From a virus, in the IMG/VR virus record IMGVR_UViG_3300021422_000208, positions 716 to 64,715 of that record: 64,000 bases of DNA. One strand, written 5' to 3'. The notes below the pieces were generated by a model. That model worked only from the letters and a program-made list of their open reading frames with translations. It was not told the origin of the DNA and made no database searches. Position numbers and translations under genes: made by a program. Numbering within the stretch: position 1 is the stretch's first letter; every line of letters starts with the position of its first letter. Shown in pieces: positions 1-4,622 of the stretch.

Positions 1-357
1 GCTGCTAGAATGTCGAAAGGCATCGTAACTAAATTATTACAACTAATAGGCATTAAATCAACTGGGTTAATTTCTACCGCATTATCTGGTACTACGGGTA
101 TTGCAGTTTGGGCAGCATTGATGTCATATATCGCTTCGGAACACGGTTCTAAACTTATCAGTGAAGTTTTATTGAAGCCATTATTTGATGACATACCTCG
201 TAGCAGTTTGGCTTCATTGGCTGCGAACGCCGGTGCGACAATCGAATCTGAACTGCTTGATCTTATTAAAGGTGCTACTACTCAAAGTAATGCTACTCAA
301 AGTAATATAGTACCAGATACGACATCGTCTGGTACTACTGAACCACCGGTAGTTTAG
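1..357 (+). CDS. Hypothetical protein, probably the 3' part of a gene starting before the window
   Basis: The frame is open from base 1 (GCT GCT AGA ATG...). There is no RBS before ATG 10. It ends at a hairpin shared with the convergent ORF. Confidence 0.5.
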   Translation, partial: AARMSKGIVTKLLQLIGIKSTGLISTALSGTTGIAVWAALMSYIASEHGSKLISEVLLKPLFDDIPRSSLASLAANAGATIESELLDLIKGATTQSNATQSNIVPDTTSSGTTEPPVV

Positions 358-362
358 TATTA

Positions 363-400
363 ATTAACCCAGATAATTACAATTAAGTAGCTGGGTTAAT
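363..400. terminator. Hairpin between convergent genes
   Basis: ATTAACCCAG (363-372) / CTGGGTTAAT (391-400), 10-bp arms. Confidence 0.5.
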
Positions 401-404
401 CAGT

Positions 405-644
405 TTACAACAATGGCATTTGTGAAACTTTGGTTGTTTCTATATTATCTTTTATTATGCTATATAACAATTCACGATCTTCGTGACTATAACGATCAAA
501 CAAGTCATTGACACTTACTCCACCTCGCATATACCAACTAATTCTAAAAAATTCTTCTTTTAATTGTTTAACATTGTTACCAAGCCTAACAAGATATTCA
601 TGTATGTCATGTATTGATAATCCAATTAGGCTTTGGCGAAAAAA
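405..644 (-). CDS. gp51-like baseplate hub/tail assembly ORF lacking an ATG; probable -1 frameshift extension of the gp26-like gene
   Basis: Not in the ORF track. It reads FFRQSLIGLSIHDIHEYLVRLGNNVKQLKEEFFRISWYMRGGVSVNDLFDRYSHEDRELLYSIIKDNIETTKVSQMPLL*. It opens exactly at TTTTTTC (644-638), directly after an in-frame TAA. Confidence 0.7.
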   Translation of the reverse strand, partial: FFRQSLIGLSIHDIHEYLVRLGNNVKQLKEEFFRISWYMRGGVSVNDLFDRYSHEDRELLYSIIKDNIETTKVSQMPLL

Positions 645-1450
645 TTAGAATAATCTAAATCAACAGTTAATGATGCTTCAACTCCGCATTCACACATTAC
701 TTTATATGGCGGGATTGTCCATTGCGTCTTTGTTTTATCAATCTGCCCCTTAATAGCAGCAATGACATCTTTGTCACAGTTGCTAATCCATTCAGTGATA
801 TGTTCACGTTCCGTTACTGTACTTTCTGGTGTTTGAACTGAATCAACTGTTGTCACATATAATTCATTTTGAATAATTGACAAATCCAGCCATAATTTAG
901 TTATTGCTGTTTGTTGCTCTTCTTGTGATGCCAATTTTTCAACTTGTGATAATTTCTGTTGGAGTTCAAAATTTCTAATATTAAAACCAGTAAACTGCTT
1001 GTATGATAATGGCTTAGTTTTAATAGTCAATTTGCCCAATTTTATTGTATTGTCATATTTACATGCTGTAAAATGATCAATTATTACATTCAAATCTAAC
1101 GCGTAATCATTAAATGTATCACATGCCGTACATTTGTTAGTTACGTCCATAGTATTGCCATATGTGGCAATTTTGATGGCAGCAAATGTCATTTCGCTAT
1201 CGAGAACTGAAAGATCCCACGCATCCGTGATATTTGGGCAACAACTTTCAATAACTCGGACTGAGCTTTCACCTGACAACAGTGCGTCTGGGGTGCTCAT
1301 TATAATTTCATCCATACCAGTCATGCCATATACTGGTAGTTTGGTAACTTCTCCATTAATCGTTGAAGGCATATTGTACATGCCTTTACTAGGTAGATTT
1401 ATGTAAATCTTTGGTTGTCTAAAGTATTGTTGTAATGGGTTTGTTGACAT
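626..1450 (-). CDS. gp26: T4 gp26-like baseplate hub subunit / assembly chaperone
   Basis: Starts MSTNPLQQYFRQPKIYINLPSKG, with MTGMDEI..TPDALLSG and CxxC-like pairs, and ends ..DYSNFF. Divergent from the tape measure gene. Start moved from 1528 to ATG 1450. Confidence 0.75.
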   Translation of the reverse strand: MSTNPLQQYFRQPKIYINLPSKGMYNMPSTINGEVTKLPVYGMTGMDEIIMSTPDALLSGESSVRVIESCCPNITDAWDLSVLDSEMTFAAIKIATYGNTMDVTNKCTACDTFNDYALDLNVIIDHFTACKYDNTIKLGKLTIKTKPLSYKQFTGFNIRNFELQQKLSQVEKLASQEEQQTAITKLWLDLSIIQNELYVTTVDSVQTPESTVTEREHITEWISNCDKDVIAAIKGQIDKTKTQWTIPPYKVMCECGVEASLTVDLDYSNFFAKA

Positions 1451-1503
1451 AATTCTCTTCCAGATGATGATTTGGTGTGTGGATTTAGGTGACTTATTTC
1501 TCC

Positions 1504-1521
1504 TAAATATAGTAGTATTTA
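1504..1521. promoter_or_regulatory. Divergent pair of T4-type late promoters (TAAATA)
   Basis: TAAATA on + at 1504-1509 and on - at 1521-1516, between the divergent gp26-like and tape measure starts. Confidence 0.6.
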
Positions 1522-1547
1522 TATTCACATTTTACTGGAACTTTTTT

Positions 1548-4500
1548 ATGGACAACACTGACATTGAAAACCTTGGCAAAATAATAGCCGCATCACTAAC
1601 ATCAAAACTTGGCATCGGCAATTCGACGGCGCCAGCTGCTTCCGCACCAGCCTCCACGAGTGCAGCAACCGATGATTATCTAGCCAGTATAGGCAAGCTC
1701 ATATCTTCGGCTAAGGAATTAGGACAGGAATATATTCCACTAGCAGCTGGTATGTTGAATTTTGCAAATTCAACAACTGCGGCATCAAATTCCCTTCAGG
1801 CATTAAATCTCACTAACAACAAGGCTATTGCATCTATCACGAAGTCTTTGGAAACTAGCCGTGCGCAACTTAATGAGGCTGGTAAAGTTGGTATTGGTGG
1901 TGGTAGTCCATCTGCGTTAGGTTTAGAAGCAGCGAAATCTGGATTGACCATTGCTGAATTCACAAAAACTATAGCGGATTCGAATGGGGCATTGGCTGGA
2001 CTTGGTCGAACTGCCAAGGTTGCTGTAGAAAACTACTCAGATATTACCAGTCGAGTTTTAGAATCGACTGCCGGTAAACAATTAATTGCCTCCGGTATGC
2101 AAACTGCCGAAATGGCTAAGTTAACTGCCATTGTTAGTATGAGCACCAAAGTCAATGCGAGTGACATAAAAGGGCGTGAACAATTGGCAGCATCAACGCT
2201 GTCATTGGCAACCCAACTCGATGAAACCGCCAGACTTACTGGCCTTAATCGAGAAACAATGGCAAATGAGATTGCGGAACGGAATAAAACCGCCGAAAGC
2301 ATTGCTTGGCAGCGTACACTATCAGTAGACCAGCGAACTGCTTACACAGAGATGCAAGGCACCCTTGCGGACTTGGGTGACGAGGTAGGTAATGCCATGT
2401 TAAATGTAGTAGCAGGCGCTCGAATGACTGATTCGACCATAGCTACCAAGATTGCGCTGGGTGAAAGCTGGACCGAACTTGAAGCAGCAATGGTTCAACG
2501 GAAGAATGCCGTCGGGGAAGCGGAGATTGCAGCTGCTAAGGACAGGTTGGAACAGGCACGGATTGGCGCATTAGAATACCAAAAGACGAGTCAATTCCAA
2601 AACCAAACCCTGTACAATACCTCCGAGATCGGTACCAAGAGTTTAAAAATTGCAAAAGACAGCGATGCAGCATTCAACGCCTTACAAAGCGGTGCCAAGG
2701 AACTTAAAAAACCATCCGAGGTAAAAACAGAAGTACAGCAGAATCAATTAGGCTTGGATGCATCTGGTAAGCCGTTGGCCGGTGCGGCGGTTATGACTGA
2801 AATTAATAAAGGATTCGAAGGGATTCGACTGGCTGCGGTCGGTGGTGCAGGTGCGGTTGATAAACTCAACAATACACTAAGTGCCACTCCTGCAGTGGTT
2901 AACTCAGTGACTGAATCCTTTAAAATGTTAGGTAATTTTAATAAAACTAGTGCACAATATACTGATGAAATGGCGGCAATGCCTAAGAAAGTGGCTAGTG
3001 TACTCAGTGGATTAGTAACACCTGGTGCCACAGTTGCTCCTATCAGTGGCCCTGCTACTGCTACTCCTTCGTCTGCCTACATCGATGTAGGCAGACGATT
3101 GGATGAGCAAGTGGCACTTAATCCAAATCCACATCCACTTAAACGCAAAGAAGGTTCGCTAGGTGCTACTGGTTCGATGATTGAAGATTTTGGTACCGAA
3201 ACCCCTGCGCTATTGCATGGAAAAGAGGGGGTTATTACTGAGAATCAATTTAACGATATAAAATCACAATTTAAATTATTACAGGCAAATGTTCGTGAAG
3301 TTCCAGCTCATGCTAATAAAGTTGGAAATAGTGGATTTACTGATTTTGAAAAACCGTCCAATGAACTTCAAAATCAAACAAAAGCAATCGAAAGCAATGC
3401 CGATCGTGATATATTTGGCGATGCCACTAAGCAATTATCATCATTGTTTACCAATAATGAAAAATCCATTAAGGATCAATTAGGTAATTTTCAAAATCAA
3501 ACAAAAGCAATCGAAAGCAATGCCGATCGTGATATATTTGGCGATGCCACTAAGCAATTATCATCATTGTTTACCAATAATGAAAAATCCATTAAGGATC
3601 AATTAGGTAATTTTCAAAATCAAACAAAAGCAATCGAAAGCAATGCCGATCGTGATATATTTGGCGATGCCACTAAGCAATTATCATCATTGTTTACCAA
3701 TAATGAAAAATCCATTAAGGATCAATTAGGTAATTTTCAAAATCAAACAAAAGCAATCGAAAGCAATGCCGATCGTGATATATTTGGTACCAGTAATGAC
3801 TTTTTAGAAACTGCTGGTGAAAAAATAACGACTATTTTTTCCAATACTGATAAATTAGCCAAGGAGCAATTGGGTGTATTCAATAACCAAGTAAAAGACC
3901 TCGGTGGAAAAAAAGAGCATGGTATATTTGAAGAAATAACTAAGCAAATTTCGTCGATTTCATCGATATTCCTAGATGAAAAGAAGACAAATCAGGATCA
4001 ATTAGCCGGGGTAAAAGTTCAAGTAAAAGACCTCGGTGGAAAAAAAGAGCAACCGTATAATCCAGGAAATGTTAAGTACCAATTGAAACCTGAGACTTAC
4101 AATGAAAAACCAATAGGTGGGTCATCTGGTCATGGACACGTTGAATTGGGTCCTCGTTACCGACATGAAGAACGTGATCCAGTCGTTAGTGGCATTAGTA
4201 AGTTAGATCAGGAATTGAGAAAATTAACAAATATGGCGTCAAATACTGATAATATCAGTAAACAGGCATCTGAATATTTATCGAAAATTAACATCAAGTA
4301 TACTGACACGAAGGTTGGGAATGCGCCGGTAATTAACAAAATTCCCGAGGTTGGCCGAATTGAGAGTAAAATACCAACCAGGGACGTAATGGCACCGCAT
4401 GTTCCATCTGACGAATATAAAAATAAGCCAGTAGTAAGTAAAGAACCTCCGGTTATTTCCCCAATTGCGCCAGTTGGGGAAATAACTATAAAAGATTTAC

Positions 4501-4622
4501 ATACCGCACTGATTAACTTAAATACCAACATGATGCGCATGGTGAGTTATACTGAATCAATTAGTGAATCTAGTCACAAAACGGCTAGACATACTAGGGA
4601 ATCAACTGGCTTACGAATGTAA
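1548..4622 (+). CDS. Tape measure protein
   Basis: Long Ala/Leu/Thr-rich helical protein (~1024 aa from MDNTDIEN at 1548), next to the hub gene and upstream of portal, with internal tandem repeats. Confidence 0.7.
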   Translation: MDNTDIENLGKIIAASLTSKLGIGNSTAPAASAPASTSAATDDYLASIGKLISSAKELGQEYIPLAAGMLNFANSTTAASNSLQALNLTNNKAIASITKSLETSRAQLNEAGKVGIGGGSPSALGLEAAKSGLTIAEFTKTIADSNGALAGLGRTAKVAVENYSDITSRVLESTAGKQLIASGMQTAEMAKLTAIVSMSTKVNASDIKGREQLAASTLSLATQLDETARLTGLNRETMANEIAERNKTAESIAWQRTLSVDQRTAYTEMQGTLADLGDEVGNAMLNVVAGARMTDSTIATKIALGESWTELEAAMVQRKNAVGEAEIAAAKDRLEQARIGALEYQKTSQFQNQTLYNTSEIGTKSLKIAKDSDAAFNALQSGAKELKKPSEVKTEVQQNQLGLDASGKPLAGAAVMTEINKGFEGIRLAAVGGAGAVDKLNNTLSATPAVVNSVTESFKMLGNFNKTSAQYTDEMAAMPKKVASVLSGLVTPGATVAPISGPATATPSSAYIDVGRRLDEQVALNPNPHPLKRKEGSLGATGSMIEDFGTETPALLHGKEGVITENQFNDIKSQFKLLQANVREVPAHANKVGNSGFTDFEKPSNELQNQTKAIESNADRDIFGDATKQLSSLFTNNEKSIKDQLGNFQNQTKAIESNADRDIFGDATKQLSSLFTNNEKSIKDQLGNFQNQTKAIESNADRDIFGDATKQLSSLFTNNEKSIKDQLGNFQNQTKAIESNADRDIFGTSNDFLETAGEKITTIFSNTDKLAKEQLGVFNNQVKDLGGKKEHGIFEEITKQISSISSIFLDEKKTNQDQLAGVKVQVKDLGGKKEQPYNPGNVKYQLKPETYNEKPIGGSSGHGHVELGPRYRHEERDPVVSGISKLDQELRKLTNMASNTDNISKQASEYLSKINIKYTDTKVGNAPVINKIPEVGRIESKIPTRDVMAPHVPSDEYKNKPVVSKEPPVISPIAPVGEITIKDLHTALINLNTNMMRMVSYTESISESSHKTARHTRESTGLRM
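3367..3787 (+). repeat. Perfect in-frame 123-bp tandem repeat, ~3.4 copies (41 aa FQNQTKAIESNADRDIFGDATKQLSSLFTNNEKSIKDQLGN)
   Basis: Copies start at 3367, 3490, 3613 and 3736 and are identical at nucleotide level. Confidence 0.95.
3888..4051 (+). repeat. 32-bp direct repeat CAAGTAAAAGACCTCGGTGGAAAAAAAGAGCA
   Basis: Copies at 3888-3919 and 4020-4051, in frame (132 nt apart). Confidence 0.9.

Follow-up and report, generated by a model that had tools for sequence, protein, structure and literature searches.

A gp26-like gene and its overlapping -1 reading frame

The window analysed here, a stretch of 64,000 nucleotides (nt) covering positions 716 to 64,715 of the IMG/VR record IMGVR_UViG_3300021422_000208, belongs to an uncultured freshwater giant T4-like phage, whose 72.8-kb record is partial and about 20% complete. 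On its minus strand, a gp26-like baseplate hub assembly gene (626..1450, with the ATG at 1450 and the TAA stop at 628..626) encodes a protein of 274 amino acids (aa), P0001, and its 3' end overlaps an open reading frame (ORF) in the -1 frame that is the subject of this study. P0001 matches the Pfam family PF12322 (T4_baseplate) over residues 63-271 with an E-value of 3.4e-11 and a score of 43.7 bits (cut-off 24.5), which is its sole significant Pfam match, and it also matches phrog_150 “baseplate hub” (5e-15). Only one PF12322 gene is found in the partial record. In a large protein collection, 901 homologues of P0001 were retrieved, the best 120 of which are all 272-290 aa long. At the nucleotide level, no match to positions 300..1600 of the window was obtained by blastn among cultured phages.

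The gp26-like frame, hereafter the 0 frame, ends with the codons AAT TTT TTC GCC AAA GCC TAA. Its Phe270 and Phe271 codons, together with the preceding T, form the slippery heptamer T TTT TTC (638..644, minus strand), which is of the X XXY YYZ type, lies in phase with the 0 frame and stands three codons ahead of the stop. The -1 frame is closed by a TAA (647..645) directly ahead of TTT TTT, and from there contains no further stop over 79 codons, the first TTT being codon 1 (P0002, 405..644, minus strand, TAA at 407..405). The first ATG, GTG or TTG of this frame is the ATG at 530, i.e., residue 39, and no Shine-Dalgarno-like motif precedes it. The statements on the sequence in the original prediction, made from the letters of the window, were all borne out when it was read again, including the absence of an ATG before codon 39 and of a ribosome binding site. 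A one-base backward shift at the heptamer would yield a protein encoded by join(1450..638, 638..405), with a trans-frame junction predicted to read ..YSNFFRQSLIGL.. and containing ..NFFRQSLI... This predicted long form counts 271 + 77 = 348 aa, close to the approximately 350 aa that had been proposed beside the 274-aa chaperone.

Three independent lake-metagenome assemblies span positions 380..1500 with 2-15 single-nucleotide polymorphisms (SNPs) and no indel in the T run. Because the run is unchanged in all three, it is not a sequencing error. As reckoned from their listed positions, the SNPs within the two coding regions all fall at third codon positions, those of the 0 frame in the gp26-like gene and those of the -1 frame for the two SNPs of the other assemblies at 498 and 540. 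Besides, the only RNA contig found, from a metatranscriptome (run X18), covers just positions 459..608, outside the T run, and is uninformative about the run and about expression of the long form.

We read this arrangement as a programmed -1 ribosomal frameshift cassette closing the one gp26/gp51-family (PF12322) gene of this phage at its 3' end and giving rise to a short and a long protein, a reading to which we assign a probability of about 0.78 on the strength of sequence comparison. Under this reading, most ribosomes would translate AAT TTT TTC GCC AAA GCC TAA and release a short form of 274 aa, which would correspond to T4 gp26. Some of them would pause with two tRNA-Phe on UUU UUC, because an RNA stem begins 5-6 nt downstream. 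These paused ribosomes would slip one base back onto UUU UUU, read CGC (Arg) next and then continue, for 77 more codons in all, producing the 348-aa long form, which would be the counterpart of T4 gp51, the “hub assembly catalyst”. The window holds what is expected of such a cassette, namely an in-phase heptamer, a stable structure in the interval of 5-9 nt past it, and a -1 ORF that opens at the site without a conserved start and evolves as coding sequence. That the shift is made by ribosomes, and with an efficiency giving two forms, is what we infer from this anatomy.

Conservation of the junction and of a downstream RNA stem

A search for related loci with P0001 alone yielded none that was confirmed; when an alignment was used as query, 80 loci were recovered. 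The related set comprises 89 junctions (73 unique), including these 80 IMG/VR metagenomic loci and eight cultured relatives, namely RaK2, 121Q, MIJ3 (PA5oct-like), GAP32, XacN1, Vibrio 2.275.O, Atu_ph07 and Phosso. As the original prediction had anticipated, the heptamer and its phase recur across relatives. Indeed, T TTT TT(C/T) is found in the same phase, 1-10 codons ahead of the 0-frame stop, at 89/89 junctions, and at each of them a -1 ORF of 72-81 codons opens at the heptamer or slightly ahead of it. The extension counts 79 codons in 66 of the 73 unique relatives, the T run consists of exactly six T in 72/73 and the 0-frame tail past the run is limited to one or three codons in 70/73. The amino acid encoded ahead of the heptamer varies (N, S, T, H, R, Y, A), and the third base of its codon is always T. 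In 72/73 unique sequences, TTC is the codon used for the second Phe of the run; elsewhere in these genes Phe is encoded by TTT in 82% and by TTC in 18% of cases. TTC is kept against this codon bias because its C is also the first base of an Arg codon that is invariant in the -1 frame. With an identity at third codon positions of only about 0.48 between relatives, the same-phase conservation of the run exceeds chance.

These counts also bear on the possibility that the junction is an artefact or a sign of decay, i.e., a homopolymer indel introduced by sequencing or assembly, or a long gene that was recently broken. Homopolymers are indeed error-prone and in-frame long forms exist in other lineages. 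However, the same stop and the same phase recur at all 89 junctions, from many samples and from cultured phages, the three lake assemblies agree on the absence of an indel, the best 120 homologues share the length of the short form, and the tail beyond the run is kept short. This explanation is consequently regarded as having hardly any probability.

XacN1 (locus L087, near position 2280) carries a variant site, T TTT TTT A (T7), after which the 0 frame runs 10 codons further; this site is followed by a strong hairpin (z = -3.7). In MIJ3 (L085, about 2330-2570) and RaK2 (L083, about 2325-2560), the conserved -1 ORF that follows the baseplate hub gene is unannotated.

The coding signal changes frame at the heptamer. 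Upstream of the run, the entropy at codon positions 1, 2 and 3 is 1.23, 1.02 and 1.54, as expected from the 0 frame. Downstream, the values reckoned in the -1 frame are 0.96, 0.59 and 1.19 for codons 3-38 and 0.85, 0.45 and 1.46 for codons 39-79, and the switch in codon periodicity occurs right after the heptamer. The extension is conserved from FFR on, with the consensus FFRxSLIxLSxxEI..LVRLD.E.K.FK.ELFRISWYMRGGV... Besides, no conserved start codon was found for the -1 ORF among the 89 junctions. The first start codon is scattered over codon offsets -15 to 38, the commonest being a Met at offset 38 (residue 39 when the first TTT is numbered 1), in 41/73 unique sequences, the others lying between offsets -15 and 32, and in MIJ3 the -1 ORF holds no ATG, GTG or TTG anywhere.

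This pattern bears on a second explanation, according to which the -1 ORF is a separate small gene expressed as a free gp51-like peptide, with translation beginning either at the ATG at 530, which would give 41 aa, or at a near-cognate codon such as the ATT that overlaps the stop, or by termination-reinitiation. In line with it, a small “gp51 / baseplate hub assembly catalyst” ORF is listed next to gp26, on its downstream side, in public records (P-SSM2, OLIVR5, Vibrio 6E35-1b, 121Q and others), ATGA or TAATG overlaps occur in several relatives, and the Met at residue 39 is invariant in the clade of the window. Yet residues 1-38, ahead of which or within which the window offers neither ATG, GTG or TTG nor a Shine-Dalgarno motif, are conserved as protein with the periodicity of the -1 frame; the first start codon stands at different places from one relative to another and is lacking in MIJ3; and the conserved Arg codon overlapping the heptamer forces TTC against codon bias. 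An independent small gene is thus considered quite unlikely in the window.

Natural in-frame long forms weigh on the same question. A profile built from 64 extensions gave 280 matches among 1.84 billion proteins, mostly short ORFs predicted from various internal start positions. Among the best 150 matches, about 25 are proteins of 319-351 aa in which the extension is C-terminal and PF12322 lies in front of it. Their fusion junction, ..LD.S.xFRxKLI.., agrees with the trans-frame peptide ..NFFRQSLI.. predicted for the -1 shift. In two lineages of such fusions, the long gene directly follows a short PF12322 gene (294 or 329 aa) devoid of the tail. These fusions, together with T4 gp51, show that the tail works when joined to the PF12322 domain, which argues against a free peptide. 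A word-index search for longer proteins carrying the extension had found none; since the exhaustive profile search later recovered the fused proteins, this blank reflects a limit of sensitivity. The AlphaFold model of one long form (pLDDT 90.9, pTM 0.86) presents the tail as four helices. With Foldseek, this model found no match in the PDB (E <= 0.001) or in AlphaFold Swiss-Prot; in a viral structure library, it matched T4-like baseplate hub assembly proteins.

Downstream of the heptamer, after a spacer of 5-6 nt (633..637, columns 18-22 of alignment A2), a stem of 10-11 bp is formed on the minus strand by a 5' arm AGCCTAATTGG (622..632, columns 23-33 of A2), which includes the 0-frame stop codon, and a 3' arm CTTGTTAGGCT (583..593, columns 62-72 of A2) lying inside the L-V-R-L codons of the -1 frame; the loop between the two arms counts 28 nt (621..594). 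Over 65 aligned junctions, 95.2% of the cells of this stem are standard pairs, as compared with 11-55% in controls with the 3' arm displaced by 1-3 columns. Changes on both sides are seen in 5 of the 11 stem pairs (e.g., A-U to G-C, G-C to A-U), and neither the observed pairing nor the covariation was reached by any of 500 shuffles. RNAalifold independently predicts the identical stem. In the window, the 75 nt starting 4 nt past the run fold at -15.3 kcal/mol (z = -2.7 against shuffles). Because the 5' arm includes the 0-frame stop, GCCTAA is kept even where the 0 frame of relatives stops earlier. At the same spacing, cultured jumbo phages display folds of unrelated sequence that are stable beyond shuffles in Atu_ph07 (z = -6.4), XacN1 (-3.7), Phosso (-3.7) and 121Q (-3.1), and moderate folding in Vibrio 2.275.O (-1.5) and MIJ3 (-1.6).

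This stem is relevant to a third explanation, transcriptional slippage, in which an extra U, occasionally inserted by the RNA polymerase at the T6 run, would let a minority of the mRNAs encode the same 348-aa fusion in a single frame. A one-base insertion would give an identical ..NFFR.. protein, the run is a homopolymer that reaches T7 in XacN1, and the comparative evidence for a fused product fits equally well. Nevertheless, bacterial RNA polymerase as a rule slips productively on runs of about 8-9 nt and the run is short here, being fixed at six T in all but one of the unique sequences. Moreover, polymerase slippage requires no X XXY YYZ phase, yet this phase is selected, as illustrated by the invariant T that ends the preceding codon. 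Finally, a covarying stem 5-6 nt downstream is a hallmark of ribosomal -1 shifts and has no known role in polymerase slippage, which is accordingly held to be unlikely. The programmed -1 shift joining the two ORFs, as originally proposed, is strongly supported by the heptamer, the covarying stem, the frame-switching coding signal, the absence of a conserved start and the fusions.

Several observations weigh against a ribosomal frameshift at this site. Given the amino acids, the chance of finding NNT TTT TTY is about 0.5 per sequence in these AT-rich genes, and the FF dipeptide is kept at the protein level even in T4, where it is encoded by TTC TTT with no extension. In a relative with two genes (L105, 1270-1295), the short PF12322 gene ends with ACT AAT TTT TTC ACT.. 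and the -1 frame shuts after one codon, so that the run can persist without an extension. Because of this chance expectation, of the conserved FF and of the L105 gene, the heptamer alone is weak evidence. In bacterial recoding, U UUU UUC is not known to rank with the slippery sequences of highest efficiency. Besides, an ATG lies 3-6 codons past the run, at the stop or overlapping it, in Atu_ph07, Phosso, 121Q, KVP40-like vibriophages and most cyanophages, in which independent initiation is possible. The stem is weak in GAP32 (z = -0.8) and does not rise above shuffles in RaK2 (+0.1), and RNAalifold detected no consensus structure in 42 cyanophage-type junctions, the single sequences of which do fold. 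Finally, the extension of the window itself has no direct match to phrog_634, the “baseplate hub assembly catalyst” family.

Relation to T4 gp26 and gp51 and to lambda G/GT

In T4, gp26 (208 aa) and gp51 (249 aa) are hub assembly chaperones, and gp51 is required for assembly and absent from the particle (Leiman et al., 2010, PMC3004832, Table 2). T4 gp51 matches PF12322 over residues 1-201 (3.9e-52), followed by a tail of 48 aa. Hence, gp51 is a paralogue of gp26 with a C-terminal extension placed right after the conserved F. The predicted protein pair of the window resembles T4 gp26 and gp51 in several respects: both T4 proteins belong to the same PF12322 family, which T4 gp26 matches along its entire length, a short form is accompanied by a long form whose helical C-terminal tail starts right after the conserved F near the C-terminus, and the gene stands beside hub and tape measure genes with divergent transcription. 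The two systems differ in that T4 uses two diverged genes, whereas the window has one gene with a predicted -1 shift and consequently an identical 271-aa body in both forms; the tail also measures 77 aa in the window, as compared with 48 aa in gp51, and is only weakly similar in sequence.

Matches to phrog_634 were obtained for residues 147-246 of T4 gp51 (1e-23) and for the -1 extensions of LPCS28 (6e-11) and S-WAM1 (4e-31). The extension of LPCS28, a member of the Straboviridae, is collinear with gp51 residues 200-244 in a coherent joint alignment. For the window, a profile-profile comparison of its extension with the gp51 tail by hhalign gave a modest E-value of 6e-4 with a probability of 28%, and neither the gp26-like alignment nor the alignment of the window-clade extensions was significant when compared by hhalign with the single T4 gp51 sequence. 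The extension being divergent, without a phrog_634 match and with this modest E-value, the tail of the window equates with the gp51 tail mainly by position and architecture. The label “gp51-like” given to it in the original prediction consequently stands for the architecture, a PF12322 domain followed by a C-terminal tail, and to a modest degree for the sequence. The adjacency of genes 26 and 51 does not hold in T4 itself: gene 26 ends with ..KEFFELL, with the FF codons TTC TTT and no heptamer, gene 25 comes directly next, and gene 51 is divergent from gene 26 and not downstream of it. T4 has two PF12322 genes, and LPCS28, S-WAM1, OLIVR5 and RaK2 have one each, which bears the heptamer. In T4 (L089, 3803-4090), a gene 26' is also annotated, which begins at an internal start in the frame of gene 26 and encodes the last 95 aa of gp26; this is a third way in which this family gets more than one product from its genes.

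The same arrangement extends to cyanophages. The S-WAM1 extension matches 582 phage records, from cyanophages, KVP40-like vibriophages, Aeromonas, Rhizobium and other phages. In 40/40 records listed, the match begins at FF, and most of these matches overlap the end of the annotated gp26 and a small “gp51” ORF. In P-SSM2 (PSSM2_014/015), an ATG comes after AGT TTT TTC GTA TAA, and TAATG occurs in a KVP40-like phage. The motif NNT TTT TTC G is present in the same phase at 79/79 marine cyanophage-type IMG/VR loci, with the first start codon at codon 5, 6, 10, 11 or 21 of the conserved ORF. Cyanophages hence share the arrangement and the heptamer of the window, but their gp51 ORF is annotated as a separate gene from a variably placed ATG, and the clade of the window has no such start. 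We lean slightly towards the view that the -1 shift is the ancestral, still prevalent route to the hub chaperone pair across the whole T4 superfamily, from RaK2-like jumbo phages and freshwater giants to cyanophages, KVP40-like vibriophages, Pootjesviridae and some Straboviridae. In that case, the small “gp51” ORFs annotated in hundreds of cyanophages would be mis-called frameshift tails, the “catalytic” gp51 of T4, long an enigma, would be a fixed-frame descendant that arose after gene duplication, and, in tape measure and hub assembly, the T4 lineage would have in gp26:gp51 the equivalent of the lambda G:GT ratio.

The frameshift giving lambda gpG and gpGT is conserved in tail assembly chaperone genes of long-tailed phages (Levin et al., 1993; Xu, Hendrix and Duda, 2004, both as cited in PMC5009743). 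It is the closest known system of this kind, together with E/E+E' of P2 in myoviruses. As in lambda, the window has a tail-assembly gene located beside a putative tape measure gene and bearing an X XXY YYZ site close to its 3' end, where a -1 shift would take place, and the short and long forms of its product would share the N-terminal body. Moreover, G and GT are absent from the particle, as is T4 gp51, the counterpart of the long form. In contrast, the protein of the window belongs to another family and fold, with no Phage_TAC Pfam match and no PDB match for the long-form model; its gene is divergent from the putative tape measure gene instead of lying on the same strand between tube and tape measure genes; and its short form counts 274 aa, as compared with about 140 aa. 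In chaperones of the lambda G/GT type, the tape measure is bound by the short part and the tube protein by the extension. As far as the sequence tells, the gene follows a lambda G/GT-like expression logic and is not a member of the tail-assembly-chaperone families. The equivalence with G/GT suggested for the T4 lineage in the original prediction is hence retained for the expression logic, and not for the family and fold or for the orientation towards the tape measure gene. By analogy with lambda G/GT and with T4, the two forms would act together as non-structural chaperones of baseplate hub and tape measure assembly, in proportions determined by the shift.

Long-tailed phages are characterized by programmed frameshifts in their tail-assembly genes, a rule to which the T4 lineage has so far been the exception. 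No report of a gp26/gp51 frameshift was found in open-access full text, subscription-only papers being outside this search. In the accessible part of the 2016 recoding review (PMC5009743), the word baseplate is absent and no T4-like case is named. If gp51 is a long isoform of gp26, its role becomes testable as that of a stoichiometric G/GT-like partner set by the recoding ratio. The proposed shift, if true, would moreover call for a corrected annotation of a core gene in cyanophage and jumbo-phage genomes by the hundreds, and it would offer an example from nature in which gene duplication has, at least twice, taken the place of a frameshift.

The putative tape measure gene and the intergenic region

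The neighbour of the gp26-like gene, transcribed divergently from it, is a putative tape measure gene (1548..4622, plus strand, 1024 aa) taken from the ORF listing, which contains a 123-bp tandem repeat. This designation was deduced from its size, position and repeats, without a family match. At the corresponding place, the gene of RaK2 is annotated as similar to tape measure protein, those of 121Q and GAP32 as “virion structural protein” and that of MIJ3 as hypothetical. The repeat array (3367-3787, plus strand) comprises 3.4 perfectly identical tandem copies of a 123-bp (41-aa) unit. The identity of these copies suggests that the array expanded recently, and hence that the ruler protein changed in length not long ago. 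Residues 570-641 of the putative tape measure protein (3255-3470, plus strand), at the start of the repeat array, weakly match phrog_4464 “tail assembly chaperone” (2.5e-5), which may reflect a mis-named family or a shared segment; no other significant family match was obtained for this protein.

On the other side of the gp26-like gene, a terminator scan detected within the extension only a weak 6-bp hairpin (486..472), at chance expectation. Between convergent genes and immediately beyond the TAA that ends the extension, a 10-bp inverted repeat ATTAACCCAG ... CTGGGTTAAT with an 18-nt loop (400-363, minus strand) may act as a bidirectional terminator, which would agree with a transcript whose coding part ends with the extension.

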